Source: Psammoneis japonica
Lineage: Eukaryota
DNA length: 64,000 nt
Direction of reading: 5' to 3'
Assembly: GCA_008632985.1 (NCBI GenBank)
Contig: QPGO01000095.1
Coordinates: 59,681-123,680, forward strand
Part shown: one piece after another, positions 5,926 through 46,975 of the stretch
Position numbering within the stretch: the first letter of the stretch is position 1
Layout of the letters: each line of letters opens with the position of its first letter
The notes under the pieces: model-generated
Seen by the model: only the letters and a program-made list of their open reading frames with translations
Told to the model about the DNA's origin: nothing
The model's database searches: none
Translations under genes and position numbers: made by a program

Positions 5926-5929
5926 CTGT

Positions 5930-18354: not shown

Positions 18355-18504
18355 ATGGTGATGATTCTCAGTTCTGCAAAAAGAAAAGCGCGGGAATAAT
18401 ACTGTAAGCGGGAAAGATATGATGCTGACGTATGCGTCGTGTGAGCGAAGGCAGACAGACTGAATTGAAAATGCTGAACTAACTAACTCTCTACCGGTGC
18501 ATGG

Positions 18505-18526
18505 CTCTCTCTCTCTCTCTCTCTCT
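18505..18526. repeat. (CT)n microsatellite
   Basis: Seen directly. Confidence 0.9.
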
Positions 18527-18919
18527 ACTGTGCTCTAGTAGAGAGACGGCTCTCTTCTGCTATAGCAATCGATTGTGCGCCCCAAACCCTAATTTGAGTG
18601 CAGAAACCTAAAGCACAAATGACAGAGGGAGCAGCAAACGGCAAAATCTAAAATCGTCAAACACGGTGCTCGCTGTTGCCGCACCACCGGCACGAATGCT
18701 CGCCCCATGACGAAAAGAATTACAGACATTGGTCCTCAGCAGTGTGAGCACACAGTCCCTCCAACTCCTTTGAGGGCAATGGATGCACACTTGCAGGAAA
18801 GAAATTCAGTGTCAAAAACAAGCTTCGCGGCAAAATTTAGAGACAGGAACGGGAGTTGCCAGTGGCCAGCTTCGTTCCCACCGATGAGAATGTGTGTGAT
18901 GCCTTTCATGTGTCAAGCA

Positions 18920-20090
18920 GAATCAAAGTCCTCCGCAACGCCAATGCAAGGTCACCTGACCTTCCAGATAAAATGGCGTGTCATGGCGCTTGATTTCCGC
19001 AACATTGTCCTTCCCGCTGTTGCCACAGAGAGTCAAATCAAGAGTGTCGAAAAAATCATACAAAAAGACCGAGGCAGCGCCCCCCTCGGATGCCTCGTTT
19101 TGTTCAAACACGCTTTCCACAATGGTGAGTTTTGGCATTTCACCAAGATCAGTGGCCAAAAATCCACCACCAAAGGTTCCAGTGTTCTCACGAAACACTG
19201 CTTGCACAGGGCATTTGTTGCCCAAAAGGACCGGAAGCTGTGGTGAGCATGCCTCCCCACCTGTGCCATCTGCATTGTTGTTCAAAACTCGCAATCAATT
19301 GTGTCAACCTGTGAAGCAGAGACAACCAGCAATCCTCCGCCAGCTTGCGCATCACCTTGGACAAATCGACTGCTCTGAATGAAGACATCGTCTGCCGTTC
19401 CAATGTGCAAATTCCCACCTCCATCGCGGTGTGGCCACCTTCAAATCTGCATCCAAAGATGCGGTGAGTTCCATTTGCAGCAATTGCCACATTGCCACCA
19501 CCAACTCCTTCCGCGTTCCTGCCTCCAACAAAGTCAACATTGACTAGAGTGAAATCCTCTCCCATCACCAACACATTTCTCGTGTCGACTCCAGCGTTCT
19601 CCACAATGCAATTCTCGGATTCGCAGCACAATGTCACGCCGGACTGTTCGACCGTGATTGCTGCAGGCGTTGTGATTGTGTTGGATCCACAAAGTGAAAC
19701 AGTGGCGACAGATCCCGCTTGATCAATCACTTGTTGTAATTCTGAATGGGACGCGACACACGGTCCCGTTGTGGGGACGCACGAGGGAGTTGGACTTGGC
19801 ACGGGAGCAGGGCCACAAGTTCCAGGTGGCATGCTCATGGACTCGTCTTCTTCCAACAGTCTTTTCCAAAATGCGGCACTCTCGGAAGATTCAACATCAC
19901 AATCGTGCATTTGGAGCATCCCGCGTCTGAGATGCGTCTCTTTGTTCTCTACTTTGGCTTGTTGTTCGCATCGATTTCGTCTCTGTTTTGTGAAATCAAT
20001 TGCTTGCACCCGTCCAATGGTGGTGTCAGTCAATGCCAGCACTGCTGACAAAAAGCTTTGACAGAACAATCTTAGACTGAAGCTTTTCAT
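18920..20090 (-). pseudogene. Secreted pectin-lyase-like/parallel beta-helix repeat protein, frameshifted and TA-depleted
   Basis: Signal peptide, diatom-type LRRG/RLL..SMSM motif, PAPVPSPTP linker, GGN/GGG...F..N.A..GGA repeats. No Tyr in the 300-aa ORF 19188-20090. Confidence 0.6.
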
Positions 20091-20541
20091 CTTCTTTGGT
20101 CAAATGCGGCGGCCGTTGGGCAATGGTTGTCATCTGTTTTGGTAGAATGCGGTGGCCGTCGGCATGGGCATGGCTTGTTTGGCATTGTGTGGCTTCGCAG
20201 AAAGAGAATGTGAGCGATCCAAGACAATGTTCGTAGAAAACTGTTGCCTTGACATTCAAATGAGGCCGGCTGTTCAGCAGTTCCTCCCAGCCAGATAGAA
20301 GAAGAAGAGAAAAGGAAAAGGAAGGAAAAAACAAACATTGATGAAGGTTTGAAAGGGTGCACTGCAGCACCGCAGTGTGCACAGTGATGAAGACGGACGC
20401 AGACAGGTGCAGACGCGCTGCGTGGAATTTGGTGCAAAGTTTCATGCGTTTGCGTGTGCAGAAGGATGTGGAACGCCAACGGCTGGAACAAAGCAGCACA
20501 CCACACAGCAGTCAGTGCAGCTCTGTCATCACGGTGCTAGA

Positions 20542-22004
20542 ATGGCGGAGGACAACATCATTGCGTCTGGCAAAGCTGAGGATGCAGCAGCTCCGGAAGT
20601 CATGGCAGAAGTCACGGGCACCAAAGGCGCGGCGGCAGTTGCCATGACTGCACTTGGTGCCGAGGGAAGTGCCGAGGGTGTGTCCGTCGAGTCCGAACGC
20701 GCAAGGATGTCGGAGAAGCCGGCGCAGTCCCAAACTGAAAAGAGGGAGAAAGCCGAGCCGCCGGAGCCAACCTTTCAAATTTGTGGTTGGAATGAAGCAC
20801 AGCAGCTGGGTTGCACCACCGAGCAGCTGCTTGAGGCCGGTCACAAGATCGAGTTGGTGGGTGATCAGGCCACCTTTGTGAAACCGGAGGTCCTGCCTTT
20901 TTGCAGCGGCAAAAGCGAGGAGGCAGCCAAGCCCGCGGCCAAAGTGGTCGCGAAAGCAACGGCGGAAGAGGAAGAAGAAGGAAATCAATTTCCGGACCCC
21001 AACGAACCGTCACTCGACTTGTGGGACTGGGTGTTGCGGCACGAAAAATCCGACAATTTCCAGGAGTCCATGTGCCTGATGAAGGATGCGCCGAACAATC
21101 CCGACCTCTGGTTCCCCGCGCTGGGAGAACTGGGGTGCATCAGGAGCGACCCTGAAGCCGTCGCGAATGCTCACGGCAAATGCTGCAAGTGGGTGTGGAG
21201 GTGCCGCACGGAAGTCGGCGAGAGGGGCATCCCAGACTTGACGCCGAAGAGCAACGAAGTGTTCAAGACCACCGTCGAGGCTTTCGAAGCGGGGTGGTCG
21301 CTCGCACTGGTCCACCTCGTGAAGAGAGTAAGCACAGAAGTGTGCACATTTGGATGAGGTGCCGTGTCATCCAACCTGCGTTGTTTTGCCTCAAAAAGTC
21401 CATTTGCTCCGCAGGCCCCAAGGAGGTGGAGGTGGGCGAGCTGCGCGCATCGCAACGGAGGGGCGCAGGCATTGGTTTTTTTGCTTTGCGCCAGTTCCAG
21501 AAAGGCAGTGCGGTTGGAATCTACGTGGGCCCCAGGGTGCCCGGCACGACGAGGAGCTGCTTGTGGTGCGACCACGACAGCAAGTTTGGAGAAGACCACA
21601 GCGTGTGCTGCTCTGCCATCCGTGACAGCGAGGGCCACTGCGTCACAGTGGAGCCAAAACCGCTTGATTTTAGCGGTCCAGGGAACAAGAATTCCCATCC
21701 ACTCTACCTCGGAATGCACCACGTGAACGATGCCACCGAGTCGTTCAAGGACAAGAAGAAGATCAAGGCAAGCCAACACGTGGACAACAACTGCAAGTTC
21801 TACAACGACGGGTGCTTGGCAGTCACGAAGCGAATCATGCCCGGGGAGGAATTTCTCTGCAGATGCAATTTGGACGAATCGGAGAAGAAGAAGAAGAAGA
21901 AGAGGAAGGCGACGTCGGGTGCCATGAATCGGAAGAAGAAATTGCGTCCACTCCCCAAGTCGGGGAGGAGAAGCTCCACGTCTGGCAAAACGTCTGCCGT
22001 GTAG
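20542..22004 (+). pseudogene. SET-domain protein (putative lysine methyltransferase), frameshifted
   Basis: AGIGFFALRQFQKGSAVGIYVG ... LYLGMHHVND ... NNCKF.NDG.LAVTKRIMPGEEFLCRCN follow the SET motif order; the terminal Tyr appears as Cys. Poly-K tail. Confidence 0.7.
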
Positions 22005-22226
22005 TTTGCTCTGTAAATTGGCAGCACAGTGTGTTGGTGTTTTTCAGCGAAACTGCAGCATCAGTTGGAAAGGCGTAGCCCCAGTTGTGGTTCGAAAAAT
22101 GGGAACGAGGAAGAACAGAAAGTCGGTAAATTTGATCAAATCTAGCAAATTGGTGGGTGCCTGCACAGTCGCCTGAGTGCAGAAAGTCAGCAAATTTACG
22201 CAAATTTAGCAAGTCATTTTGCACTG

Positions 22227-22805
22227 TCACAGTCGCCTGAGAATGGTCTCTTCCTCTAGAGAAAGGGGGATTGAATTGTTGTTCTTGCCCACTGCAGCAC
22301 TCTTCAGGTGGAGAGACACGCAGAAGAACTTGTCGTTTGAGCTTGTCCTGCTGGAGATGCAGTGGCACTTGGTGGGGTTAAAAATGATGACATCACCAAG
22401 CCGGAGTGCAACGGAGATGCCTTCGGTGGGGAAGCAGAAGTGCGCCACAATCCCGTCATTCATGGTGTGGCTGCCGGATGGAGGGACTCCCACCACGGTG
22501 ACTGCTGACAGGAAGAAGTCCTCGTCCCGATGGGCGTGGAGGAAGACATTGCGCCCAGCCGCCAGAGAGGAGAAAATGCCATCTGACTGCACCAGGGATT
22601 TCCAGTTGTGAAACTTTTTGACACAAGCGACACCCTTGAGGATGGCACAGTCCACGCACTCATTGACAAGGTGCTCCATGCGTGAAAGAAGTCTGGTGAG
22701 GTGGTGAGTGTGTTGGTCGGCTGTGCCAGGCTGCTTGCAAGAAATTCGAGCGTCTCTCGTGGCAGCCAGGCCAATCGTGGAACACTTGCTCCTGTCAGTC
22801 TCCAT
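22227..22805 (-). CDS. TET/JBP-like 2OG-Fe(II) dioxygenase domain (probably mutated)
   Basis: GIFSSLAAGRNVFLHAHRDEDFF (HxD), FCFP..GISVALRLGDVIIFNP..CHC (distal His), VSLHLK; layout like algal/fungal TET/JBP domains. Confidence 0.6.
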   Translation of the reverse strand: METDRSKCSTIGLAATRDARISCKQPGTADQHTHHLTRLLSRMEHLVNECVDCAILKGVACVKKFHNWKSLVQSDGIFSSLAAGRNVFLHAHRDEDFFLSAVTVVGVPPSGSHTMNDGIVAHFCFPTEGISVALRLGDVIIFNPTKCHCISSRTSSNDKFFCVSLHLKSAAVGKNNNSIPLSLEEETILRRL

Positions 22806-23739
22806 AGACGCAACCTGTTTGACGGGCAGACAGACGAATTGCTGTGACCGCCTCAGATTCCATTATTTTTTCTTTTCACGGAACTACCATGGGCCGATCC
22901 GACGACACTGTCTTGTTGACGCCGGTGCTCGACAAGAACGTAAATCTGCCGGACACCACTCGCGCTCGTGACAGCAAATACGGGGAACGTTTGTTCGGTC
23001 AAATAACATCCGGCTTGGGTCACTTCAACGGGCTCAGACTCCACTTGTGTCGACGAGGTATTTTCTGTCTCTTGCCGCTCGCTCACGGCACGAACCAATG
23101 CCTTTACTCGGCGACTTATATCTCTCTTTCCAAGACAAGCAGCCTGTCACCACTGGCGCTTTTATTCGGCCTTTCCTTCCTCTACCTGCTGCAGTGGCAT
23201 GCTTTCTGATGCGTCGTGCTGCTGACAGTAACTATGACAATCAATAACGTGTACGTTGATGTTGTGCACCGGCCCGAGTTCGACCTTGTTGATGACAAGC
23301 CGACAAACAACCAATCAGAATTGACAGGTTTAAGTGCTAAACTGTTGGTGCGGTGACATGAGAGGCTCTAAAGCAATTGACTAAAGTGATTGAACATTCC
23401 GTTGTTACGGCGAACGTTATCGTCATTGCACACGGTCATTTTTGCTGTGCTCCTTTCGTTGCGGTCGTGCATGTAACTAACGGCGCTTTTTGTTTCGGTG
23501 CAGTTACATCGTGGTTACTCCAGCTTCTTTGCGACAAAAAGCACAGAATAAGATGGGGATGCGGAAAGAACTGATGAAATCCGGGGGGGTTCTGTGAAAA
23601 CCTGGGGTGCGCTACTTCACTTATGTGCGTCCTCCGTCAGCACAATGACAATAAGATACAGAAGGAGTGTTGAAATGGCAATGGATAAGTTAGGTGGCAA
23701 GTGTTGGAGATATGCTAATAAGGATGGGAATACGATAGC

Positions 23740-24040
23740 TGGCATTCAACACATACTAGGTAGGTAGTGTTCGATAGCTACCGGTGGCATTCGATGCGAT
23801 GGCCAACAGTGGCCAGCATTCGATACTGTACGACAGGGTAGCTAGCATTCGACACTGTACGATAGGGTAGCTAGCATTGAAAAGCTAGAGTACTAGCATT
23901 TGACACGATGCGACAGATAGTAGTATTCGATAGCTACTGGTAGGAGTAGTATTTGATGTGATACGATGGATAGTATTCGATGCGATGCGGCAGCTAGTGT
24001 TTGACAGCTAATGTTCGATACGATACGATAGCTAGAGATC
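23740..24040. repeat. TA-rich short degenerate tandem repeats (~28-bp unit tagcattcgatactgtacgacagggtagc)
   Basis: Repeated tagc/ttcgata/tacgat motifs seen directly. Confidence 0.7.
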
Positions 24041-24169
24041 CCCAATATTGGATGACTTCTTAGATTTTACAACAGAAGCTGAGGGGATAAATGTGTCCTC
24101 TGACCCAAGCTATTAAAGTCAATGATAAAAACGGAAGTTATCCTTTAGTTACATGCACGACCACAACGA

Positions 24170-24680
24170 AGAAGCTCAGCAAAACGACTTTTGACAAGGA
24201 CGACAACGCCCGCCATGAAATGCAACACTCGGTTGCTCTTCTATATACAATAAACAAATGATACCAGCGATGAAATTCAATGGATGAAGCCAAATCAACG
24301 AAGTATAAACGACACGGCCAACGGCATGCGATCAAAAACAACAACACTGTGTGAAACGACTTTACACAACGACGACAACACCCGCCATAACAACAAAACA
24401 GTCGGTCACTCTTCTCAATGCAACAAACAAATGATACGAGCCGTGAAAGCCAATGGATGAAGCCAAATCAACAAAGTACCGGTGTGAACAACACAGCCAA
24501 TGGCATTTGATGAAAAACCACAACACTGCACACATAAAACGACTTTGTGCGACGACGACAACGCTTGCCACAGCAACTGAACATTCAAGCATGCTCTTCT
24601 TGATACAATAAACAAACATGATAGCCAACTTGCCAAGCCAAATCAATGAAGTAACATCGAAATAGCCAACAACGGACGAA
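24170..24680. repeat. Three diverged ~180-bp tandem units
   Basis: aaacgacttt..gacgacaac at ~24182, ~24354 and ~24537; gccaaatcaa recurs in each unit. Confidence 0.75.
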
Positions 24681-25851
24681 AAAATTGAATCCAATGTACT
24701 CAAAATTGCCTGTGGGTCCCGGTGGCACACAAGAGTTCCCAACAAGGTGCCCACACACCACATCTCTCATGTTGTTGTTGCTTGCATTGCCACTTCCATA
24801 ACACGGCCTTCTTTTGCTGGCACACGGCAGATGCAAGGGTGGAGCCGCACACCTTTGTAATGGTTCCTCTGGGGATCTCGCTTGCGTTTTGGGAGACGAT
24901 GCCGTGGGCGATTCTCATGTCATCACTGTAACAGGTAGAGGAAGGAGAGGTCAAATAAAAGCGCCAGTGGTGACGGGCTCCTTTTGACGGTAATGGAGAT
25001 GCACGTCTTCGAGTGGGGTGTGATGGGTCGAGCCGCAATGGGAGCTGAAGAGGAAAAAATGGGTTGGTGCCGATGATTCCTGAGCCCGTGAAAAGCGCAC
25101 AATAAAGGATGCAACTTGCCAAACATGAATCTCTTGGTCTCTATTGTTAAGAGCGCAAGTGGTGTCTGGGAGAGCAAGCGTCTTGCTGAACAGTGGTGAC
25201 ATCAAAAGAGGTTGTCGTCAGCGGCTGTGGTTCTGTCGTGGTAAAAAAATTCTGGCTCTGGAGGTGTCACAGCAATTCAGCGTCCGGGTTCCGTCTATGA
25301 AGGTAACGCGTTGTTTGCCGCGCACGGTGGGACTGGGCGGTGCAGCATTCTAGTGCTTCGAGCGCTCGGTGCTGAGCAACCAGTTCTGCTGGGTTGGGGG
25401 AGCTGAACACCACAGCAGAACGCGGCAGCAGGGTGCAGGTGTTGTCGCAGCGGCAACCGTCCAAGCCAAAGAAAGGCTTCAGATCGAGCACAGGGTCACA
25501 GACGACCAGAGGAGCCAATCCGGCAAAGTCAAAGTCAGCAAGACAAGGTGGTGCAGGCTGAGTGTAGTCGCCGTTATAAACTGGAGTGCGGTCAGCCACG
25601 CAGTGCATGGAGAGACTCTTAGTGGCGCACGGTGCGAGTGGAACGAGGCGAGCAATCTTGGATGTTTTCCTGCTGGCGCGGCTGCGGATTCGCCCACGGC
25701 TGCGGTGGGCCTTGCGAAGTGGCGGTTGAGCCCTCAACACGTGCTCGTGTGTCCTGGTGCGCATTGACGATGCGGTGTTCGCAGAGAACGTGTGTGCGAA
25801 CTTGCCGGCAAACGTTCCGCTGCTTGACACTGTCACTGTCGTCTCAACAGT

Positions 25852-26020
25852 GCCCAAAGCAGAACTCTGTCGACAGGGACCGGCGGACTCCAGGGGAGTG
25901 GGGTCAAAACCTAATCGAGAGATGTGTCTGCTTTCCGTTGCCTCAAGAGCACCCAAAGCAAAACTCTGTTGACAGGGACCGGCAGACTCCAGGGGAGTGG
26001 GGTCGAAACCTGATTGCGAG
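25852..26020. repeat. Two copies of a 99-bp-spaced direct repeat
   Basis: cccaaagca.aactctgt.gacagggaccggc.gactccaggggagtggggtc.aaacct at ~25853 and ~25952. Confidence 0.85.
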
Positions 26021-26504
26021 AAGCACTTGCTTGTTGTCGGGCTGCGAGCTGCACGTCCCAAACCCCCACACTGTCGAGACCGGCTGTAACTCGATCGCGA
26101 CAAGTGCTTGTCGTTGGTGGGACGACGCAGCAAGGCACGAGGCAGTTGCGACATGGTGTGTCTCAATTTGAAATGTGTTCAAAACACAATGACGGAAGTG
26201 TTGTCGCATTGTTTTTGTCTCCGCGGAGGGAGGATCATCCCACGGCAATCTCAGTGCGAGTTCTCGCGTAGAAGTGCATTGCGTGCCGTGCCAGCTCGTG
26301 TGTTTGAATTGCACGGACATGCAAGCACGGCAGCGATGAGAAGCAGGTCGAGATTCAAAACAAATTTTGCCGCCTGAAGGCGTCTCATTGTTTCAACGCG
26401 TCTGCACATCTGTTTGAAATGACTTTGTGCGTCGCTCCATGCGCAGGTAGAGGCAGCACGCAGCATTTGAAAATTTCGCGTGCACAGAGGGCACGACGGC
26501 AATT

Positions 26505-27472
26505 TTGCGCATTCTGCGCACGTCACAGTTTGGTTTGAAAACGCGACGTCTGGTCGAACCCGCTGCAAGCAAGGTTGATGTTGCCACAAGGTTGGATGCG
26601 ATGAACCATCGTTGCAGAAGTGTTGGGGAGTTTTGTCATCAAACGGCTCCGGACTCCGCGTTCCAGAGCAGGCATGTCTCCGGAGACGGAAGCGGATCTT
26701 TGCACGGCGGCGAAGTTGGCTTTGCTTTGAGCAGCGAAGTGTTTTTGAACGAACGCCTTCTTGGCGTGAATCACACCTGCGACACATCTGTCGACATGGG
26801 CAGGGGAGTTGCTGGACCCAGCATCGGGCTCAAGTTACTTCATCGCCGTTGCACCGTGGTGAGCATCGAGGCCGACCACGATCGTCACCAAGAGGCTGCA
26901 CGTTGGGCTCATCGTGCTGGCCTTTGCTCGAACGGTGGGTTGGAGTTGATCAACAAGTCATTCTTGGACGAGAGGCTGGCTCCTTTGTGGAAAAAGAAAG
27001 GACTCAAGGTGTTCTTCAACAACCACAACTCCCGCATGGTCGACGACAAGAACACACAGCAGAAGGCAGAAGCAATGCTTTCAAAGTTGTGTCGTGCTGG
27101 GACCGTGATGTGGTGGCACTAGATCCGCTGTTCGCGTCGTGTGCGGGAGAGTGGATGTGCGAGTCGTTCACGGCGGATTGCCATGATGGCGACTTTTTGT
27201 GGCACAGCGGAGACGTGAAACATCTCGTCTTCCACAAGCACACCAAGAAAGAGGAGACTTCTCAGTCAACCAGCCAGCACATGCGACGTCCCACTCCGAC
27301 ACACTTGGAACGGAAGCACTTGCCCGTCGCGAAATGGCCAATTTTACTCAAGAACTCAACTGGACTGTTTTTTTACTGTCACTGCACTAGACGTCACATG
27401 CTAGTTGCTCCACTCAATTCGCCATCGCTTCGTAGTGACGTAAAGTTGTCGTCGGAGATGGTGCATGCTTGA
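26505..27472 (+). pseudogene. DOT1-like class I SAM-dependent methyltransferase, frameshifted near 27105
   Basis: GSLHGGEV (cf. YGE), VDMGRGVAGP (motif I, DLGSGxG-like), VSIEAD, KSFLD, VFFNNH (cf. IFVNNF), then VVALDP...FLWHSG. Confidence 0.5.
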
Positions 27473-27559
27473 AGAGACAGAGGAAAGCTGAGTTGCAATC
27501 GACACTTAGTTTGCCAAACATTTGCAAATTTACACCACACCGGCAAAAAAAAAAACAAC

Positions 27560-28432
27560 TCAGTCTTCGTCACTGTCCTGAAGCACCAAGTCGTCATCGA
27601 CGTTCAGGTCAACTTCGCAGTTGAGCTCGACATCATCGTCGGCCTCTTCTCCAGCTTCTTCTGCCGGAGCTCCAATGAGACGACAGAGTTCCACAGGCAA
27701 CGACCCCTCGTAGAAGCAACTGTGAAGTGAGTTCTTGTTTTGGGCGTGCCAACCGATGTGAAACTGACCACCTTCCTTCTGAAGCTCGGCAATCGCCGCC
27801 TTGTTGCCGATCACTTCGGACCAAACAGCATCCTTCATCCAGAAGAAGTCATCTTCAACGAAGACCTCAGTGTTGTTCTCAGGGTCATCGTTGAGCTGCT
27901 TCGCAATGTGCTTCCCGAGGCCGCGCACTTTGGCTTCGGTTGGGACTTCTTCGAGGAAGATGAAGAAGAGACGCGCAGCGCAGTTCTTGGCGTTCGTCTG
28001 CAACTCGCCTTCGTGAACCCACCTGCCAGCGCAAGGGTGGAATCCGACTTGAACCGCCCACGGAGTCCTGCTGCGAAGGTTGTCAAACAAAACCTTCTCC
28101 GACCAAACATTGGTCAAAAGGGGATTCTTGGCTTGGAGACGAAAAACGACGCCTTTCTTGCGGCCGACAGTGACGGTGGCGCAGCGCAGGAGGGCGTCCT
28201 CATCGGAATGGCTGCCATCGTCAGAACCGGCGGATTTGGAAAGCTTGAACCCATGCTTGGCAAGGCAGTCTTCCGGTTTGAGGTTGTCGTCGGTCAAGCC
28301 ATTGGTCTTGCGGGGCGGACTTGGTTTCTTCAACAGAGCATCAGAAAACTTCGTCTTTGCCTTCTTCTGTTTGGTTTTGGCAACTTTGGCTTTCGCAGCC
28401 GGGGAGGTCGTTGTGTTTCTTTTGCATGCCAT
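27560..28432 (-). CDS. Hypothetical protein (basic N-terminus, acidic tail), probable element cargo
   Basis: Open ~290-codon frame with protein-like composition and a single Tyr. Confidence 0.55.
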   Translation of the reverse strand: MACKRNTTTSPAAKAKVAKTKQKKAKTKFSDALLKKPSPPRKTNGLTDDNLKPEDCLAKHGFKLSKSAGSDDGSHSDEDALLRCATVTVGRKKGVVFRLQAKNPLLTNVWSEKVLFDNLRSRTPWAVQVGFHPCAGRWVHEGELQTNAKNCAARLFFIFLEEVPTEAKVRGLGKHIAKQLNDDPENNTEVFVEDDFFWMKDAVWSEVIGNKAAIAELQKEGGQFHIGWHAQNKNSLHSCFYEGSLPVELCRLIGAPAEEAGEEADDDVELNCEVDLNVDDDLVLQDSDED

Positions 28433-28908
28433 CGAATCAGTCGGAGAGAAATTGTGGGAACAAAAAGTGCGATCATCCAGATGTGCCAAGAAAGACCCAG
28501 CAAAGCTGCGCACATCATGCCAAGGAGAACTGGCAACGTCAGCAACTAGATCCAAACACGTCGAACTGCAACAAGGCAACCTTCCAGGTGTCAGCACTTG
28601 CAAGTGGTGCATGGATTCAATTTGAACAAAACAGATGCAAGGATCGGAGCATGCAAAGTCGCACTGAGTTTGCTGAAAATGCGTAAAATCACGCGCAATT
28701 CCGTCCGTGCTTCGTGTGCATTTCAGCCGTTGCTGCCGCGTAGCCAAGGTGGGCCCATCACCCATTTGGAGGATTCGCGCGCACTTTGGAAACACGAATG
28801 ACGTCAATCGCATTGTCGCTGCCACACGACTAACTCAACTGCCCCGCCACTCGTTAAAACGTGATTCTACAGAATTTACGTAAAGCTGCGCCCACCACCA
28901 AGATTGCC

Positions 28909-29011
28909 GAAACAACTTGAACAAGATCCGAATCTTACCCCATGGAATGTTCAGAGCAGATGGTCAAAACAACTTGAACAAGATCCAAATCTCATCCCAT
29001 GGGATGTTCAA
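28909..29011 (+). repeat. 57-bp tandem duplication (KQLEQDPNL.PW.VQ x2)
   Basis: Seen directly. Confidence 0.85.
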
Positions 29012-29249
29012 CGTCGACGAAACCAAGCAGGATGTCATGCGTCTGGTGCAAAGAAGGACGTGGGAGGAACGCACATGTCGCTCTTCCATCGAGGTGAAAG
29101 AGGCACACTTTCGTCTCACTTTTTTGTGACAGAACCTTTGCGCAAAGGGAAACGAAAAGCATCCAACTACAGTGATTGGGCCACACCAATCGCAGTTCTC
29201 AGTTCTCACAGTGACCTGGCAACGCAGGTTGTGAGATGATGCACAAGCT

Positions 29250-29830
29250 CAGCTGCGGTGACTGGACAACACCAGTCGCAGCTCTCACAGAGACCTGATC
29301 GCACAGGTTGTGAGAACACGACACAACGCTGCGGTGATCGGACAGCACTGACGCAGTTCGTCAAGCAACTAATTCACTTGGCTGCGGTGACTGGACGACA
29401 CCAGTCGCAGCTCTCACAGCGACCTGATTGCACAGGTTGTGAGCAAACAACACAGCGCTGCACCTCGCAACGTAGGTTGTGAGATGACGCACAAGCTCAG
29501 CTGCGGTGACTGGACGACACCAGTCGCAGCTCTCACAGAGACCTGATTGCACAGGTTGTGAGAACACGACACAATGCTGCGGTGATCGGGTGGCACCGAC
29601 GCAGTTCGTCAAGTGACTGATTGGCTCGGCTGCGGTGACTGGACAGCACCAGTCGCAGCACTCACAGTGACCTGATTGCACAGGTTGTGAGAAGACGACA
29701 CAGCGCTGCGGTGAACGGGTGGCACCGACGCGGTTCGTTGATCAACTGGACAGAACCACTGCAGTGACTGGACAACACCAGTTGCAGTGCTGCAGGTGGT
29801 GAGAAAACACACATCGCTGTGGTGATTGGA
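29250..29830. repeat. Tandem ~120-130-bp repeats upstream of the Rep-helicase ORF (about 5 copies)
   Basis: gctgcggtgactggac.caccagtcgcag at ~29252, 29381, 29500, 29629 and 29760. Confidence 0.9.
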
Positions 29831-29932
29831 CAGCACCGATCGCAGCTTCACGGTGATCGCACTGAAAAAACAACTGTTTTCACTGAGCAACTTCTTGAAA
29901 TTTGTTGAGTCAAAGTGTCAGCTTAAATTAAA

Positions 29933-32900
29933 ATGGACGAGGCCAACTCCCGTGTTTGTAGTGCAATCAACAGAAAGTTTGAGATGCTTTTTCTACATGG
30001 AGACGGAGAATTTAGACCACACGCATGTTCAGTCTGTGACGTTCTGCTGAAACCTAGAGAAGTTTGTTGCTTGCCGCTCGAAACATTGGAATCAGCAAGA
30101 AACTCACTCACCCCTTCAGACTGGAACAGCGCATCTGATCGTCTCAAGTCCTGCTGCACTGTAGAGCATGAAGACACTGATTGGATCAAAGACCTGCCAC
30201 TTTCTCCCCGCGCCCAATGCGCAGTGCAGGAAGACAGACGACGCGTCGACGGATTCACTTGCTGCAGCGAATGCCGAAGAAGCCTGGGAAGAGCCGTCAC
30301 GCCAATGTGCGCGACAGCGAACAACCACTGTTTCGGTGCCCCGCCGCACGAACTGTTGTCTCTAACCGAGGTAGAATTGGCAATGCTCACACCAGTGAAA
30401 ACACACGGATGCTGCTTCAGTTGCCTTGGCGGCAAACAGAAGAAGCTTCAGGGAAGTCTGACACACTGCAAAGTCAAGATACAAAGCATCGTAAGAACTG
30501 TTGTGCACTTCGACGTGCTGAATTTACATCAGAATGTGATTGCACTGATGACTGGAAAGATGACTCCGGAGCAAAGACAACTTGCGCGTTCAAAGAACAG
30601 AATTAGGACGCACCACATGCCAAGGGCGATGGAATGGCTGTTGTGCCACAACCAAGAGTGGGTGTGCCAACAGACAAATCTAGATGAAGTCAGGCGTAAT
30701 CTGCGGAATCCCGCACTTGTCGACAGCACCAGCGAAGAAGAAGGAGAAAATGCAAACATTGAGACCTCAGAGTCATTTCACATTTGCTTTCCTGATGGAA
30801 CCATGTCTCCTGCGACCGGTGGTCAGTGCAACCTGGGCTGCTTCAAAGATCTTGTGCACGAAGCCACTGCCAACGGATTTGATTTAGAGGTGCAAGCACA
30901 GTTGTCCAAAGAATCTGCGAGTGATTTCAAAGGCAACAACTTCGTCAACGCGTGTCTGCTGCAGTTTCCTTTTGGCAGAGGAGGAATCAATGAGACGAGA
31001 ATGAAGAAAGACGGAAGTCTTGCAGATGGCACCAACCTTGCACACTGTGCCGACCACTTGGCACGGATTTCCCAGCCTCACTTCCACGAGCAGCTCTTCG
31101 TGTTAACATGCTGCAACTTGACAATGAAGCAAAGGATGCTGCAGAGCGCAGGGTGGAAAGTCAGGGACAAGAATCAGGCTGCACAGTTTGCAAACGAACC
31201 AACAGTGGACGATGTGGATGGAGCTGTTTGTGATCGCAACTTGGGCAAGAGAAGAGATTGTGGACTCGGGCACCACTTTTTGCGCGCACTCGACGTTGCA
31301 TCTGCGTCTCTGCCACACAGCAACGAAGCAGCAAAGAAAATGAGGAGAAACGCCGAAACTTGTCAGCATCATTTTGGTCAGGGTGGCATTTTCTTAACCG
31401 TCAGTCCGGACGATGCAAATTCGTTTCTTGTGCAACTGTGCTTGGGTGTCATCCTGGACCCAAACGAAGATGTGACACAACTGACGGACGAAATTCTTGC
31501 CAGCAGGGCCAAGCAACGTAATGAACTGCATCTAAAGATTCCCGGTCTAACAGCCTTTGCATTCGAGTGCTTGTTTGACATTGTGACAGAAGAGGCAGTG
31601 GGTTGGGATCTGAGCACTGACCAACCAAGAGAAAACTTTAACTTCTACATTGACAGGCCAGCCGCATTTTTAGCCGCAGTTGAGGAGCAGGGACGTCTGA
31701 CAGTGCACGGACACATGCAGATCTGGTTCGCATTGATCAACAATGCAAGAGAGAAACTGCATTTGCCAATGAGACAGATCCAACACAAAGGTGCTGAGCA
31801 CCTTGCCAACACAGTTCAGAAGATCTGCAGCACGGAATTAATCTGTGGCGAGGACTTCAGCACCAACGCGTTGCGCGAAGCATTCGATCATGACTGCACA
31901 GTGCCAAAAATGTGTCACACCTCTCCAAAAGCAGCAGACGACCAACAGCTGAGAAACCTGAGGCACAAAGACGGCCAGCAGTCGAAGAACGGAATGTTTG
32001 CTTGTTGTCGTCACTGCACCAAGCACTGGACAAACGTCGAGTTTGTAGAAAGCTTTTTACAGTCACGGCACCGTGCACCTGGCCTGACTCGCCATCCAGA
32101 CAACCATGCAAAGCGACTAAAAGCAATGTGTGTGCAACACCAGCGAAGTGGTCCGCAAGGGACAGTGGGGGCACACATGCCGGACGCAGCTTACAACCAT
32201 CACATGCACGTTACGAAGTCGTGTTTTCCCAAATGCGCAGAGTTACGTAAAATGCGTAAAAAAACCCCACACGAGGAACTGGACACGCAGTTAAGGAAAA
32301 GGAAACGAGAGGAGCTCAAACTGGGTGACTGCCGTCACAGGCAACCAGCTGCTTCGTGTCCAAATAATTTGGCAAGGAACGCAGATGACACTCAGACAAA
32401 GTGGTTCAGCTGGGATGGAACTTTTGCGCATCGGTGCGTGAAGGAAGTTGTTCCGAAGAGGAGAAAGTGCGATGCTTTTCAAAACGTGTCGTGCCCTGCA
32501 ACAAGCAGATCAAAACTGACACGCAACACAAACATTGCTTCGTTGATGCCTGGACCGTCTGCTCAACACACGATCAAGTACATCCTAAAAGACACCCAGA
32601 AAGATGACACTGCATCGTACGACGAAGTGCTTCGAACTGCGAACAGGATGGCAACGGAATTACGGAAACATGCATCTGATGCATCGGAAGCAATCAGACG
32701 TCTCATGTGGGGTGCTTGCTCGCATGACAAGACGAATGTCATTGGACCACCACTTGCGTCTTACATGACAAGGAACGGAAGCCGTTTCATCGAATCTCAT
32801 TTGACCGCATGGTGCCCCTTGAAAGACATTGTCAGCACACTAGAAAGAGACGAAGTGTCTGCGACTGTAGCCCATTTTGGCGATGCACCGTTCTTCCAAT

Positions 32901-35584
32901 GCCAGGTCTTGCACCACCTGTGTCGTCCAACAGCACTGGAGAATCTCAGTCCATTTGCGTTTTTTGGTGAGTGCGAAGTTCTTCGCAACACAAGGAAAAA
33001 CGAACACGGCATGATGATGTTCGACAACAGAGCGCACAGGCACCCGTCTTGTAATTCAACGAAGAACAAGTTTCTTCAAGGTGTCAGACAGCGACAGCAA
33101 CCGCGATTGTTGAAAGTGCTTCAGCACGATCTTCCTGATGCAGCCAAGTTTGGCAGTTGCCTTGCAGATCCACAGCAACCAACAACACTGGACAAAGAAT
33201 TGTGCTGCAAGTTGGCATTGGCCTTGTTTGCGCCTTGCAGAACAATGACGGAACTCAAACCAATGGCCCACACATGCCTGCATGAATTCCAACTCTCCGC
33301 AGCAGCCGGTGTCATTGCAGAGGAAAACTTGAACTTCTTGCAGAACCTGCAGGATGCCAAGTCCAACTGCCTTCGTCTCAAAAGTGCATCTGACGATCTG
33401 CAAAGAAAGACGGAGCAATTTAGACCTGCTGACGTTGCGTTTGACTGTTGCGAAAGTGACGAGGAAGAAGGTCTTTCAGGCGCCGTTCAGGGTCAACTGC
33501 TGGATGCACTCTTGGAAGAAATGGCAGAGCAGCCAGAAGACGATGACATTGGGTTGAGCGACCAAGCAGTTGTTCCTGCGCATTTGAGCGGCAAACGTGC
33601 AAGACAGAAAGGTTCACACATGGGTGGTTGCAAATGCTTGGCAGACATGCACACTGACCCACCAAACAAGGAAAGCCAGGTCAATGAACGACAACTTTTT
33701 GAGAATCTAGAGGGCGGCGATGACACCGACGAGGAAGACCAGAATGAAGGAGTGCAACAACACATCCACAGCAGACCACTGTCAAGAGACGACATTGTTC
33801 GAGTGATGCTGACTAGAACGCAAAGAACAAGAAGGTCGTTTGAGGACATGACAGGTTTGGAAGAACACGTCGATGTACGTCAAGCAAACGGATCTGCAGC
33901 AAGCATCGTAGACTGGGCTGGGAAAGCAAGACTGGACAGGCAACAGCAGCGTGCCTTTGAAATTCTGGCAGGAACCTTTGTGCTCACTCACTGCCAAGAC
34001 GCTCTTCAAGACGAGACGTCACGCAATGGACTCAACAGGAGAAATGGCAGACACGAATTCGCAACAAACCTTCGCCGATTGAAGAAACTCGTGGAAGTGC
34101 AAAGACGTGGAACGTTGCAACTTGTGTGTTTTTTACATGGTGCAGGTGGAAGTGGCAAATCAACCACAACAGACCTCGTCGTGGAATGCGGAAGAGAGTG
34201 CTGCTCGCTTGTTGAGCAGCCGTTCACAACAAGCACAATCAGAGTGACTGCACTGACCGGAGTGGCTGCGACTGTTCTCAAAGGGGACACAATCCACCGA
34301 GTTGCATGCCTCATGAGAAGAAAGCAAATGACCGAAGAGCAAATTGAAGCATGGTCAGACACGAGACTTTTGGTGGTAGACGAGATTTCTTTTGCAAGCA
34401 AGAGAGAACTAGAAAAACTCCATGAGAATTTAACGGCATTGAAGAGCGAATTGAGCAAGCCGTGCGGTGGTGTGAACATTGTTTTCGCAGGTGACCTCAG
34501 GCAACTAGAACCAGTCGGAAAAGGAGTGAAACCACCACACAAAGATGCATGTCCTGAGTTTCACGAGTGGATCAACTGCTGCGTGGAACTTCGTGGTGTA
34601 CACAGGTTTAAAGACGATCCATCATGGGGAAAACTGCTTGAGAGATTCCGTGCTGGTAAGATTGCAGTTGACGACATAGAGTGCATCAACGAACGAGCTG
34701 TTCAGAACGAAGATGATCTGCCCAGTGACCTCCGCTGTGCTGCGTACGCAAATAACGACAGAGATGCAATTGACACTGGCCCATTCGAAAAATGAGTAGA
34801 AACACTGCATGGAAGAGATGGAGACGTCCTTGACTCAATGTTGATTTTCAGTGACGACTTGCAGGTGCAGAATGGCACGAGACTCTGCCAACCATTTCCG
34901 GTTTGCAACAGCTTCTGGAACAACTGTGGTGAAGGAGACGTTGTCATGCAGTCAGGAAGAATGGATCCAGTCTTACGAATTTACAGAAGATGCAGAGTCA
35001 TGACACCTTTCAACGAAAATGCAGCAAACGGTCAAGCAAACGGAACGCAAGCCACTGTTGACAAGGTCGTTCTCAAACCAGGACAGGAACCAAGACTGGT
35101 GACTTTAGACAACAACATTGGCATTCCTGCTGCACTTGCCAGTCAGGTAGACCACGTTGCATTGGAACACTGCAACAAAAGCATCGACCCCGCGAAGTTT
35201 TTAGTTGAGCCAAAAACAAATGCTTTCAGGGCTTGCATCGCCAAGCCCAGCCTAATTTTAGAAGAAGGCGACAAACAAAGGCACACTTTCCAACTGAAGG
35301 CAACCCAGCTGCCGTTTGTCATCAACAATGCCACTGCAGGGCACAAACTGCAAGGGAGTGGAGTCCCGCAGTTGTTTGTGCACTCTTGGAGCTACACTCA
35401 GAATTGGGTGCATGTTGTGCTCTCCAGAGTAAAGACCAGAGAAGGGCTGTTCATGCGAAAGCCACTGAGCAAGGACCTGCGAAAATGCAAGGTCCCAGAA
35501 GGCTACGAAGCCTTGACAAGACTCATGAAGGAGAGAAGCGCCACGCATTTTTCTCAGCAACAGTGCGCAGAAATGTCAATGTAG
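29933..35584 (+). mobile_element. Helitron Rep-helicase (DUF6570-like region, HUH Rep, PIF1 helicase); one in-frame TGA at 34793-34795; hypermutated
   Basis: FGQGGIFLTVSPDD; VEEQGRLTVHGHMQIW (HUH); HTIKYILK (YxxKYxxK); GAGGSGKS; LVVDEIS; GGVNIVFAGDLRQLEPV; HRFKDDP; ANGT; HKLQG; VHVVLSRV. ORF 34838-35584 is in the same frame. Confidence 0.93.
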
Positions 35585-35730
35585 TGCGCAAACATTAGAT
35601 TAGGATGCTCAACCACTGCACAACTGTTTGGCGACCCCAACCGTAAAAATGCGGAAATTTCGTAAAATAAAATGTTTCGATTAGATCAGCACATTGCGCA
35701 GAAATCTACACATGCGTCACACAACGTCGA

Positions 35731-36201
35731 ATGGATTTTAACCAACAAACCAAGAAACGCGAACGCAACCGTCACAGAAAACGCAGCAACAGAGAAAACA
35801 TGGATTTGCAACAACAAACAAAGAAGGCAGACGAGCCAAAGAAAACTGGTGAGGACAAGAAAAAGGTGCAGACATGTGCGGAACTTCTTCAGTCATTGAT
35901 GAACAAGGAAGACGAAGAGGAGACTACCTTGGAAGAAGCAAGAGCGGCGTTTGACCTCACCTCGGGAAATTTTGATGTCACTTCTGCACTTGTGCAAGAC
36001 AACACGACAGCGGACAGTCATCATGTGGAAACAACGGTCGCACCCAAGGATGATTCAACCATGGAGGAGCTAAAGGCAGCACATGCAGCGGCGATTCCAC
36101 AGCGGTCGGGGAGATTTTTCACCGAGGAGGAGATGGTGGAGCAGGAGAAGGAGCAAGCAAAGTCCCTTCAGAAGAAGTGTGGCCAGAAACAATGGAATTG
36201 A
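35731..36201 (+). CDS. Hypothetical charged protein downstream of Rep-helicase
   Basis: 156-aa ATG ORF, K/E-rich, no Tyr. Confidence 0.4.
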   Translation: MDFNQQTKKRERNRHRKRSNRENMDLQQQTKKADEPKKTGEDKKKVQTCAELLQSLMNKEDEEETTLEEARAAFDLTSGNFDVTSALVQDNTTADSHHVETTVAPKDDSTMEELKAAHAAAIPQRSGRFFTEEEMVEQEKEQAKSLQKKCGQKQWN

Positions 36202-37139
36202 GCAAGTTGCAAATGACTGTTTGGCAAAGACAACCGCATCAATGCGCAAAATGCATGCACATGGACTTTCACTTAAGCCGCCGCGGATTGAGTGTGGCCA
36301 CAAACAAGGACTGACTGTTTGGCAAAGAAACTGTGACAATGCGTAAATTTCGTACATTTCCACATTCACTTAATCCAACGCAGCTTGCCTTGGACAACAT
36401 CAACGTGCACAACTGTGCAACATCAACATGCACAGACAGCCTCATGAAACCTCACAGAAGACAGAACGGTCAGAAGCAAAACAACCAGCACCATGCACTG
36501 ATGCATGTCAGTCATGTCACGTGGGTCACGCAAAAGTGTGCACTGAAACAACCGTCATGTGTTGTGATTAATTCGAACACCCGGCGCAAAATGCAGCAAA
36601 ATGACTGGTGCAGGCAATCGTCATGGCTCCATTTTCTGATGGTGGCGAGGGCGGCAATCCAAAATCTTTCAGTTTCAGACTTCGATCTAGAGAGTTCCAC
36701 CTAAAAGAGGAGGAGCCAATTGCACTCTTCTGGACAGTGCTGCGGAGGGCGGGCAGAAACTGCTTTTGCCGACCTGTCGAACGATTTTCGATTTCGGCAC
36801 TTGCACACATCATGCTCGCTCCGTGATGGCATCTGCGCAAACTTCCGAGCAAGTGCCGATGCAATCAAACGCAAAACTGCACCCCAGCAGATGAAAGAGA
36901 GCTCAAGAGCCAGTGCCACAACAACATCCTCCCACACGGTCACAACCTTCTAAGACATGTGTCACCCCTTCTCGTGGAGAGAGAGAGAGAGCCCCCTGCA
37001 CAAATCTGAACCGTTCCGCACCAACGCCAGATGGGACCACAATTCACTCTCAGTCCCCGCAAAATGTCAAGTCCATTGCCGATTCATCTAAACTGAAACA
37101 TCTTCTCATGTGGAGAGATGAAACACACACAAAACCCAG

Positions 37140-40100
37140 ATTTGGAGACCACCAGTCCAGCTGCACTGGCCTGGGAGGCCAGCACATGTGATCATGAGCT
37201 GCAAGTGCACAGCCTTGGTCACAAGGACACCACCATGTTCACACACCACAGGCTCCAATGGCTCTCTCTCCAAGAACAACATTCACAAGCAAATCTGCCA
37301 AAATTTGTGTCCACATCTTCCTTTCCAAATTGAAGAATCCCAGCCACAACAGCATCTTGAGCCACATGGCGACTGGCCCCGCATTGTGCTTCTTGTGCAG
37401 TGCAGACTCCTGGGCAAGCTCACATTCTTTGCCACTCCTTGGTTCCCACACAATGCACATTTGCTGGACCTTGAAATGGAGTGCCAAACATCCTCAACTT
37501 GCACTCAAAAGCCACAATCAGATCCTTGCAAGAAGTTCTCAAAGCCACCTGCTCACTTCCAAAAGCTGCTGATTCAACTGCACTCTCTGTCTCTTGCCAA
37601 ACCAGCCAATTAGGGCATTGTTCACACAAAGAAAATAGCACCTGAGTGCAGACTGCAGGTGATGACATTCCCAGCACAGTTTGCATCAACAAATGTGGGG
37701 ATGGCTGTGCAGCTTCAGTGGGGGCTGAGCACACTCAGTGGCAGTGCTTCTTCAACAGTGCTGCAGAATTCTTTCCATTTGGTTGAGCAGTTGAAGATGG
37801 GCTCATGGGTGGCTGGGTCCTTTTGGGACCACAGCTGAGCCTTCCAACATTTGTGAACAATTCTTCACACAAGCAAAAACACAAGTTAAAGCCTCAAGAT
37901 GTGCTCCTTCCTTGGATTGCCCAACACTCAGAGAGAACAGAAATTTCATGATGAGTGTGCTGGTGCACCCCAGCTCAGCTGCACCCTTCTGCAAATCCCA
38001 GCCAACTGCAAGCAATTGTGCAACAATGGACCCAGCCCCAACTCACCCCATGTGCCCAACTCCAGCTCACACTTTGATGGCAGCACACTCACCACACTGT
38101 TCTTCACACCACCTTGTCATTTCCATGTTCTTCAAGCAACAACTCAACAGCCTCAACTGCATTCTTCACAGCACAGGTCCTTGGAGAATGGTCATGAGCC
38201 CAAATTGCCCTGCCATCTTCCATCTGAGCCTTCTCAACATCTGCTCTGAGGTGCTGTGCTGCAGCTTTCCCTTTGGTGCCTGGCTTGATTTTGTGATCTC
38301 ACAGTCTCCTTTGTGGCTGTCTCACCCCAGTGCAACACAATCACAACATCATCCACATGGATGCCATCAGCATCTCACAGTGCTCACATCCATTCTCATG
38401 TGCAGCTCTGCTCAAACACAGACATTGGAGATTCGCTTGAGTTGGCTCAAGCTCTCTGGGTTGTGAAGAGCTGCAGCAAGTGGTGATTGTCACAAGAACC
38501 CAGCACTTTTCAAGCCATCATACAATGCTCTCACCATGATCAATGCACATTGTTGCATCTCTCTGCATTCCTTCTCTCCTTCAAACCATGTCTTCTCAGC
38601 ACATGTGGTGCACCAAGATGCACATTCTCTAGATCAATCATTGCAACATCTGCTTTGTTCAATGCTGCCAAAGTGAACCTGAGCCTTGAGCTCTTCCTTG
38701 ACACTTCACTTGAGTGGACAGTTGGTGGTGGTGGCACCTCTGTTGTGTGGCTGCCTGTGATGAATCTTTCCTCATGAGTGAAGTCCATCTTGATGCCAAA
38801 TGCCAAATGTGGATTTCTCAACAACCTCGTGCAGCTCTTCCCTTGCCTTGCTTTCTTGGGAGTCTCCACCTGATGCCTTTTCCAAGATGCCTTCACCTTT
38901 GTCATTTTTTTTTGTCAACAGCATGCACCCACCAACCCATCCCCATTTCCAGGTCTGTCTGCAGAGAGCTTCATCAACTGATTTGAGCAGCCTGACCCCA
39001 CACTTGTGAGTCATTCTCCAGCACTTTGACTCAACCTTCAAGATGAACCAGCTCCTCTTCTGCCACAATGTGGTTGGCACTCACCAAGCAAATGCTGGTT
39101 CATCACCAACTTGATTTGCCACCACAGGCTCCACAACTTCAATCCTGAGGCACTTCAGCTTTGCCCATGATGTGCCACAATCCTTCCACACCACCAGAAA
39201 CTCCCACCTTTTGGTCATGATCTTGTGCTCTTGACCACCTTGCCTGACATCACGTGGGCACCTTCCTCCTTTGGCCCTGCCCATTCTGTCTTTTGTGATG
39301 GTCCTTTGCCTCAAGGTGCAGAGAGAATGAAACACTGGTTTGCATTGTTGTCAACCTGAACAACCACATTCTTGGCAATGATGTCAGCTGAGCACTTGTC
39401 TGTCATGCTGTTGGCATTTTGGGACCTTGTGCTCCCTTGTGCCAAATGGCTTCTCCCAACTGGCTTTCCATCCTGACCCCTGGCTTGTTCAATTGCCGCA
39501 CTGTGGTGCCACCTGCCTTTCATGCCCACATCTCCTCAAAGATGAGCCTCATGTTCAGATGCTGGTGTGTCAGTGGCCTGTTCATAATCATCACAGGGCC
39601 TTGTTTCATCAATTGACATGTCTTGGTGCTCTTCCACAATCTTTGTGCTCAGCTCCAAAGTTGTTGTCAATCTCAGCATTGTCCAACACAAATGCTGGCA
39701 CTGCAGCTTTGTTGCCTTCCAGTGCAAAATTTGAGCCATCTGGTTGTTTCTCCAATCTCTCATTGAAGTGCTCCATCTAGACTCTCTTGTCTGGCTACAT
39801 CCAAGCCACCTGCATCACATGTTTCATCAGTGTTTTTGATGCTGCCTTCCCTGACTCCATGACAATCTAATGATGCACATCCAAGCCAACCTCACACAAG
39901 ATTCTCAACACTCATCCAAGTCTTTTCCAGGGTCATCTGCCATGTTGGGCTTGTCCAGTTGATCCTCTTGCCAGACCAGGTCATGGGGAATTCAAAATCA
40001 AGATGCCCGTCAATCTCCCCGGTGCTTGTCCAGTGGTGTTTGAAACTCAAGGGACACACACTTGTTCCTGTGACACACGAAAGGGGGTGAAAAGGCTTCA

Positions 40101-46925: not shown

Positions 46926-46975
46926 AAAACACTTTGACATCACTTGCCTGGGTGGTCAGTGAAAACTTTGACATT

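Follow-up and report, generated by a model that had tools for sequence, protein, structure and literature searches.

A probable high-copy Helitron-family element with a TET/JBP-fold dioxygenase gene, in a hypermutated region of the Psammoneis japonica genome

A 64,000-nucleotide stretch of the Psammoneis japonica genome (contig QPGO01000095.1 of GenBank assembly GCA_008632985.1, forward-strand positions 59,681 to 123,680; hereafter the window, in whose own coordinates all positions are given) contains, at about 20.3-36.7 kb, what is probably one copy of a high-copy Helitron-family transposon with cargo, in a diatom-like host. Besides its Rep-PIF1 helicase gene, the element would carry a gene for a TET/JBP-fold Fe(II)/2-oxoglutarate dioxygenase, a DOT1-like methyltransferase gene, two other open reading frames (ORFs), and, as further probable cargo, a SET/PR-like methyltransferase gene, all of them intronless (Table 1), and the entire unit would move as a single Helitron. 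A preliminary description of the same DNA had proposed a giant rolling-circle element equipped with two putative histone methyltransferases and a DNA-base oxidase. Three points are now established, namely the presence of Rep-helicase domains, a TET fold for the cargo family, and the repetitiveness of the unit as a whole, but Helitron termini were not found and the SET and DOT1 assignments are not established.

To judge by its sequence, this particular copy is an inactive relic and cannot be functional, because its tyrosine codons are nearly erased, its genes contain frameshifts and two in-frame TGA codons, and its dioxygenase gene is interrupted by a nested insertion. Neither the inactivation nor the splitting of the dioxygenase gene was part of the preliminary description. 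The window is eukaryotic and compact, with a repeat-rich core lying between intronless host genes.

Table 1. Features of the unit at 20.3-36.7 kb and host genes of the window
Feature	Position	Strand	Basis and remarks
High-copy repeat unit, read as Helitron-family element with cargo	20300-36740	+	contig depth, flank-contig ends
SET/PR-like candidate gene, broken here	20542-22004	+	ORFs; read in frames A and B, which change over at about 21369/21370
TET/JBP-fold dioxygenase gene, C-terminal half, metal triad H-x-D ... H	22230-22803	-	family profile
Nested 2.49-kb element, long imperfect terminal inverted repeats	22804-25296	.	contig joint
TET/JBP-fold dioxygenase gene, N-terminal half, first ATG at 26154	25297-26154	-	family profile
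DOT1-like (class I S-adenosylmethionine [SAM] methyltransferase-like) candidate	26505-27472	+	Atlas neighbours; frameshift about 27108
orf424, 424 codons, lysine-rich middle and acidic C-terminus	27563-28834	-	ORF call
Tandem array of a unit of about 248 bp, roughly 2.5 copies, separating orf424 from Rep gene	29214-29838	.	
Helitron Rep-PIF1 helicase gene	29933-35584	+	Pfam; 1620 codons, TGA 34793-34795, 262 further codons
orf176, 176 codons, within repeated unit	35671-36201	+	ORF call
Ubiquitin-conjugating enzyme, host gene	16988-17440		
Glycosyltransferases, host genes	53252-57609		
TerC, host gene	62091-63068		

The Rep-PIF1 helicase and the TET/JBP-fold dioxygenase

The Rep-helicase named in the preliminary description was borne out. 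The ORF at 29927-34792 is one 1622-codon frame in which Rep (HUH) and PIF1 are fused, and three Pfam families exceed their curated cut-offs (Helitron_like_N, 34.1 bits against a cut-off of 28.9; DUF6570, 38.4 against 24.3; and PIF1, 54.5 against 25.9). An H-x-H motif lies within TVHGHMQIW. The catalytic two-tyrosine motif has the form Y-x-x-x-Y; its only candidate here is H-T-I-K-Y within HTIKYILKD, the first position of which is His, as expected from a change of TAY to CAY. Tyrosine makes up only 0.4% of the Rep ORF and cysteine 4.6%. A frame of 1622 codons could stay open in a dead gene because the change from TA to TG or CA creates no new stop codons.

The TET/JBP-like gene that had been placed at 22227-22805 holds up at the level of the fold, but this interval encompasses only the C-terminal half of the gene. 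Its front half is the ORF at 25270-26178 on the minus strand, which had been listed as a separate ORF of unknown nature. Searched with a profile of 84 relatives (the window row excluded), the C-terminal half matches positions 148-346 with an E value of 2.1e-66, and residues 132-289 of the ORF at 25270-26178 match positions 7-148 of the family profile with an E value of 9.7e-11, the two halves abutting at profile position 148.

The ORF at 22230-22862 on the minus strand has two homologues, the proteins P0001 (47% identity) and P0002 (35%). At E<=1e-3, a profile built from these three sequences recovers 947 cluster representatives, and the diatom Fragilaria crotonensis is the source of some of the relatives. 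Across an alignment of 85 sequences, H204, D250, and H260 are invariant, and D206 is present in 99% of the 84 relatives (P0001 has N at this position). The window copy keeps H-R-D and the distal H and retains 39 of the 50 strongly conserved columns, H-x-D and H included.

The fold was assigned from the intact relative P0001, whose AlphaFold2 (AF2) model, computed with the family alignment, reached a pLDDT of 91.7. When Foldseek was run with this model, ranks 1-25 were all TET enzymes (CcTet, NgTET1, CMD1, and TET2; best E value, 7.5e-9). TET enzymes likewise fill rows 1-16 of the VIA-align results, with Z scores of 18.1-13.3 (TET2, 18.1 over 251 residues at 3.6 A; CMD1, 15.7; NgTET1, 15.1; CcTet, 14.5), and are followed by ALKBH3 at 12.0, the highest Z score reached by the AlkB/FTO family. 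Among the neighbours of the TET-like protein in the Atlas, a protein-language-model resource, 24 of 30 lie in Tet_JBP-bearing clusters. Sequence-level searches count against the assignment: PF12851 (Tet_JBP) is matched by neither the window ORF, P0001, nor P0002 at E<=10, none of 44 relatives matches Tet_JBP or any other Pfam family at E<=0.001, and a PDB search with the 85-sequence family profile gave no match at E<=10. Guided by the structural model, we read the dioxygenase as belonging to a TET/JBP-fold family outside the current PF12851 model.

A metagenome scan with the TET alignment returned one contig of 1964 bp, too short for gene context. Among 150 family representatives, P0052 (39% identical to the window ORF) is the only one with less than 1% tyrosine (0.9%), and its cysteine content is 4.5%. 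P0052 could be a further hypermutated copy, in which case its organism would share the process.

The nested element that separates the two halves of the dioxygenase gene has a near-normal TA content. Its inverted-repeat blocks pair 22836-22973 with 25145-25278, 23106-23196 with 24924-25014, and 23409-23483 with 24142-24214, and its ends read ATAGACG... and ...CGTCTAT. Other copies lack exactly 22804-25296 (a joint from 22803 to 25297 skips 2493 bases, at a depth of 283), and the nested element is a later insertion into the cargo. Since its TA content is near normal, TA conversion either came before the insertion or spared the nested element. Independent nested insertions were one of the possibilities that the preliminary description had raised as damaging to its proposal, and one is indeed present, but as a later hit into the cargo and not as the cargo's origin. 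The N-terminal region of the gene also contains a 99-bp tandem duplication (25838-26032), and other copies vary at this tandem region (joint from 26069 to 26186).

Candidate methyltransferase genes

The remaining cargo genes have to be judged against the composition of the element. Stop codons number 27.2 per 1000 codon positions in the element versus 36.8 and 38.6 in two host stretches, because the loss of TA removes TAA and TAG; such stop-poor DNA yields many overlapping ORFs and makes ORF length weak evidence here. The element nevertheless contains 11 ORFs of at least 200 amino acids (aa), against 2.27 expected from 200 first-order Markov simulations of it, and 21 of at least 150 aa, against 9.98; in neither length class did any of the 200 simulations reach the observed count. 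The excess of coding sequence in the element is real, yet any lone ORF of 200-300 aa proves little.

ORFs are present where the preliminary description had placed a SET-like and a DOT1-like gene, but each consists of two overlapping frames in this copy, and no ORF of the window matches a SET, Tet_JBP, or DOT1 family in Pfam, NCBIfam, or PHROGs. It is therefore necessary to weigh the possibility, which we regard as rather doubtful, that the SET-like ORF, the DOT1-like ORF, or both are not methyltransferase genes but arose by chance in stop-poor DNA or are of some unrelated kind; the element would then be a TET-carrying Helitron with additional ORFs only. What argues against this, and for both being real genes of the element family, is that each regains a single long frame through indels that other copies carry: in 2 contigs (530 of 2008 depth), an additional C behind 21369 joins the two SET-like frames, and the absence of 2 bases at 27108 in one contig (1174 of 1174 depth) joins the two DOT1-like frames. 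The SET-like gene also has an in-frame TGA at 21355-21357.

For the SET-like ORF, MECOM supplied the sole PDB match at E<=10: its PR domain, a PR/SET domain (E value of 1.9), aligned in two stretches that occur in the same order in query and chain. Several results favour the view of an unrelated ORF: the SET-like ORF has no Pfam match even at E<=10 (PF00856 included) and none in NCBIfam or PHROGs, and no homologue was found among 596 word-sharing candidates in the near-length range. A tblastn search of 50,697 phage records gave no match either. The single-sequence AF2 model of the SET-like core, with a pLDDT of 36.5, is unusable, and Foldseek with that model returned nothing at E<=0.001. The description of this gene as SET-like thus retains one weak PR-domain match, set against the missing Pfam match and the two frames and TGA of this copy; on balance, the sequence leans towards a gene of the SET/PR type.

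The lead for the DOT1-like ORF comes from the language model. Its first Atlas neighbour (score of 0.94, 182 of 256 shared features) is a cluster in which 86% of members carry PF08123, and the second, also a DOT1 cluster, shares 179 of 256 features; both lie above the tool's same-family mark of 170. DOT1 clusters occur at ranks 2, 4, 5, 13, and 20, with other class I methyltransferases interspersed. First hits of at least 0.9 do, however, arise for 4-10 in 100 shuffled proteins, and the conventional searches again speak for an unrelated ORF: no Pfam match even at E<=10 (PF08123 included), none in NCBIfam or PHROGs, nothing in the PDB at E<=10 for 26451-27119 and nothing of relevance there for 27110-27469, and no homologue among 336 word-sharing candidates in the near-length range. 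The tblastn search of the 50,697 phage records was negative for this ORF as well. With a language-model lead to DOT1 families on one side and the lack of Pfam and PDB matches and the two frames of this copy on the other, we think it likely, from sequence features, that the gene is of the DOT1 type.

A codon-usage frame test places all four frame pieces of the two genes best of six frames, a weak point in favour of coding; the test fails on the validated TET-like gene, its positive control, and so has little power. In the first such test, the antisense frame of orf424 scored about equally, which leaves its coding strand uncertain, and the frame of orf176 is not top-scoring. Searches with orf424 gave no match in Pfam, PHROGs, NCBIfam, the PDB, or viral contigs, and orf176 has no family match in Pfam, PHROGs, or NCBIfam. 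At the 248-bp tandem region upstream of the Rep gene, other copies vary (joint from 29432 to 29793).

The repeated unit and its boundaries

Contigs of DNA run X1 were aligned to the stretch at >=80% identity, and their summed depth, which is no copy number, rises from 63-90 over 18001-20001 to 1700-5500 over 20002-36676 (250-1500 within the nested insertion) and then falls to 609 over 36677-37343 and to 78 over 37344-38000. The pile-up, 25- to 80-fold over the flanks, is confined to about 20.3-36.7 kb, which excludes single-copy, syntenic host loci, an outcome that the preliminary description had considered fatal to its proposal. A total of 4219 contig pieces were placed at 80-100% identity, of which 1117 are at least 99% identical, 1315 are 95-99%, 1335 are 90-95%, and 452 are below 90%. 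On the left, the contigs that match the flank with zero differences end at 20304, and on the right they begin at 36695. Placed in this way from contig ends, to about +/-40 bp, the unit measures about 16.4 kb here and about 13.9 kb minus the nested insertion. The contigs of run X2 cover the flanks and the nested element only, none of run X3 aligned, and there is no second copy of the element within the 64-kb window.

As the whole of 20.3-36.7 kb is repeated, the SET-like, TET-like, and DOT1-like genes and the Rep-helicase share one unit, and it is strongly suggested by these alignments that the Rep-helicase and the cargo form one element. The competing interpretation is a composite repeat, in which the Rep part (about 29-36.7 kb) is a Helitron and the SET/TET/DOT1 block (about 20.3-29 kb) is another repeat or adjoining DNA, the two being co-amplified or merely adjacent in this copy. 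We consider this unlikely, although the single-element reading has several results to contend with. No Helitron terminus was found near either boundary, nor a hairpin (fold z-score of -0.22), nor terminal or subterminal repeats, and an empty site for the whole unit was not seen. Depth over the SET region (20-22 kb) is 1700-2850, about half of the 3100-5500 over the Rep gene and its surroundings (29-36.7 kb). No contig bridges cargo and Rep, the sole long-range joint being that of one contig with a 43-base side, and gene orientations are mixed. Hypermutation may have destroyed the Helitron ends. Helitrons typically have a 3' hairpin and leave no target-site duplication. They are described as inserting between A and T or between T and T (PMC10288648).

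On the other side, high depth is unbroken from about 20.3 to 36.7 kb, with a drop only at the nested insertion, where it still exceeds that of the flanks. TA depletion and tyrosine loss are uniform over both blocks, and TET genes are known Helitron cargo elsewhere. The long-range joint itself also fits a single element: one X1 contig (depth of 61.5) connects 21188 to 35585. The 14396 bases left out have GT..AG ends, and an extra T stands where the two sides meet. Such a joint would be expected of an internally deleted derivative of a single element that kept both ends, and the derivative is possibly non-autonomous.

That the region is part of an integrated large DNA virus, or of a virus-like element, is highly improbable. 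Giant viruses and phages do have SET, DOT1, and TET homologues (with DOT1 and SMYD homologues reported from Mimiviridae; bioRxiv 10.1101/2021.11.30.470311), and for the DOT1-like and TET-like proteins many of the neighbouring Atlas clusters are viral. Against this, none of the 53 window ORFs scanned belongs to a capsid, polymerase, packaging ATPase, or integrase family, five element proteins or alignments found no relatives in viral contigs, a canonical Helitron Rep-PIF1 is the sole gene for replication or mobility, and dozens of scattered, diverged copies fit a transposon.

Hypermutation, known relatives, and implications

The window comprises three composition classes with sharp edges, defined by the observed/expected ratios of TA and CG. 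Ordinary DNA has TA ratios mostly of 0.5-0.7 and CG ratios of about 1. Blocks depleted of TA only (TA ratios of 0.06-0.28) occupy about 18.65-22.8 kb and 25.3-37.1 kb and contain all Rep and cargo genes, and doubly depleted blocks, with TA and CG both near 0.05 (CG, 0.03-0.2), occupy 3-8 kb and 37.1-50 kb. Overall, depletion (TA ratios of 0.0-0.3) extends over 1-8500, 18650-22800, 25300-50000, and 59000-61000, and TG and CA are in excess within these blocks. A single 100-bp step at 37100 takes the CG count from 5-7 per 100 bp to 0. The mutational stratum that the preliminary description saw as shared by the Rep and cargo genes is real (TA ratios of 0.12-0.26, CG ratios of 0.86-0.94), but it overruns the repeat unit on both sides (about 18650-20300 and 36740-37100) and does not delimit the element.

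Eight ORFs or frame pieces of the element have tyrosine contents of 0-1.1% and cysteine contents of 3.1-5.4%, whereas six host ORFs have 2.2-5.0% tyrosine and the TET-like family has a median of 3.3%. All three conserved tyrosine columns of that family are altered in the window copy, to Cys, His, and His. Inter-copy differences in run X1 comprise 817 transitions versus 141 transversions, and adjacent CA/TG swaps occur at single dinucleotides among copies, a pattern that independent hits on an ancestral TA (or CG) in different copies would produce. Many of the 40 best-supported differences have CG in other copies where the window copy has TG or CA, and the window copy has thus lost some CpG too. 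In the mechanism we propose, TA dinucleotides would have been converted to TG or CA, erasing tyrosine codons, that at the candidate two-tyrosine-type motif of Rep included.

These blocks look like repeat-directed, dinucleotide-specific transition hypermutation in a sense opposite to fungal repeat-induced point mutation (RIP). Like RIP, it is dinucleotide specific, strikes blocks of repeated DNA, and kills transposon genes; unlike RIP, which changes CpA to TpA and so enriches TA (PMC12730594, in its passages on RIP), it removed TA and produced TG and CA, and in other blocks CG was removed too. That the nested element is repeated yet undepleted indicates that the process is episodic or selective. 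We found no report of a similar process in diatoms in the diatom literature, to the extent that excerpts convey its content. Two other explanations were rejected: a base-calling artefact at modified bases, as the contigs of a separate run match the doubly depleted flank (36695-38000) with 0 differences, and TA avoidance as native codon usage, as conserved tyrosines have become Cys or His and the relatives have normal tyrosine contents.

Several other observations concern the depleted blocks. A 303-codon ORF at 19191-20099 on the minus strand, with a signal-peptide-like start (MKSFSLRLF...), 0% tyrosine, and 5% cysteine, lies outside the high-copy unit (depth of 67-90, two diverged contigs); as it is both low copy and free of tyrosine, TA conversion also struck low-copy DNA beside the element. 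It has no Pfam or relevant NCBIfam match and a weak PHROGs match to a virion structural protein (E value of 0.004). About nine 171-bp tandem units at 856-2317, within long ORFs (728-2572 on the plus strand and overlapping frames), are TA depleted and have no Pfam match. An assembly gap of 313 N at 46976-47288 lies in a doubly depleted block, adjoined by CACT/CAGT-type microsatellites (46262-46939). In another such block, an inverted-repeat pair at 4054-4130 and 5844-5920 (77 nt, 88% complementary, 1713 nt apart) is spaced much like the 23106/24924 pair of the nested element and may be another copy-like foldback element.

The core idea, a TET-carrying Helitron, is already known from fungi and Chlamydomonas. 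In fungi, TET/JBP genes are cargo in 11 lineages of DNA transposons, among them Helitron1 (in Puccinia graminis and Pezizales) and Helitron2 (in Agaricus bisporus), for which escape from methylation-based silencing has been proposed (Kojima 2025, PMC12730594, in the portions that treat these elements). The element described here would likewise pair a Rep-helicase Helitron with a separate TET/JBP dioxygenase gene, but, going by the same portions, it differs in its diatom-like host, in a dioxygenase that is missed by Pfam Tet_JBP, and in its extra DOT1-like and SET-like ORFs; whether it belongs to the Helitron1 or Helitron2 class is not assignable without its ends. In Chlamydomonas reinhardtii, Helitron2-2_cRei and Helitron2-3_cRei carry most of the alga's TET/JBP genes (bioRxiv 10.1101/2022.06.16.496473; 10.64898/2026.10.09.758095; both as excerpted). 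These families, too, are algal Helitrons with TET cargo and multiple copies (polymorphic in Chlamydomonas), and CMD1, a transposon-borne TET of that alga, is among the best structural matches to the P0001 model. They belong to another lineage, however; the copy studied here is hypermutated, and the excerpted accounts of Chlamydomonas do not mention histone-methyltransferase-like cargo.

More distant parallels involve other superfamilies. The KDZ (Kyakuja-Dileera-Zisupton) and Plavaka transposons carry TET/JBP genes and show a similar transposon-linked expansion of them, but these are DDE-type cut-and-paste elements and not rolling-circle elements (Iyer et al. 2014, as cited in later work). SET histone methyltransferase genes are described in HarbingerS and MuDR transposons of Phytophthora (PMC12730594, in the portion on these elements), which are likewise stramenopile transposons with SET-type cargo (a candidate here) but of a different superfamily. 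Transposon-captured chromatin domains have also been surveyed (bioRxiv 10.1101/2021.11.30.470311). Judged by title or abstract, none of the publications listed for Helitrons and DOT1 appears to concern transposon cargo, and the literature yielded nothing related to JBP genes on diatom transposons. The host lineage and the divergent TET-fold family are new, as is possibly the methyltransferase cargo.

The cargo of intact copies might modify the DNA and chromatin of the element itself, for instance by oxidising 5-methylcytosine so that silencing is lifted, as has been proposed for TET-carrying transposons of fungi and Chlamydomonas. For the present element, such a role is drawn by analogy and is not a result. 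A bolder scheme, which we hold to be quite improbable, is that intact members are three-enzyme "epigenetic counter-defence" Helitrons of diatoms whose oxidase acts on thymine (JBP-like), with or instead of 5-methylcytosine, and that oxidised thymine at TpA is the origin of the blocks in which TA became TG or CA. Were it true, a transposon-borne or host-borrowed base oxidase would drive a RIP-like defence of a kind unknown outside fungi.

The probable Helitron described here extends TET-carrying transposons to a diatom-like stramenopile and connects such transposons with a TET-fold family that is large (947 sequence clusters) and undetected by Pfam Tet_JBP. Of possibly greater importance than the cargo is the hypermutation by which this copy was inactivated, because nothing similar was found in the diatom literature as far as excerpts reveal it. 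If the DOT1-like and SET-like genes are confirmed, this would be the first Helitron that we could trace to combine a DNA-base oxidase with cargo of the histone-methyltransferase type, and it would make possible direct experiments on how mobile elements counter chromatin silencing in an ecologically dominant algal group.

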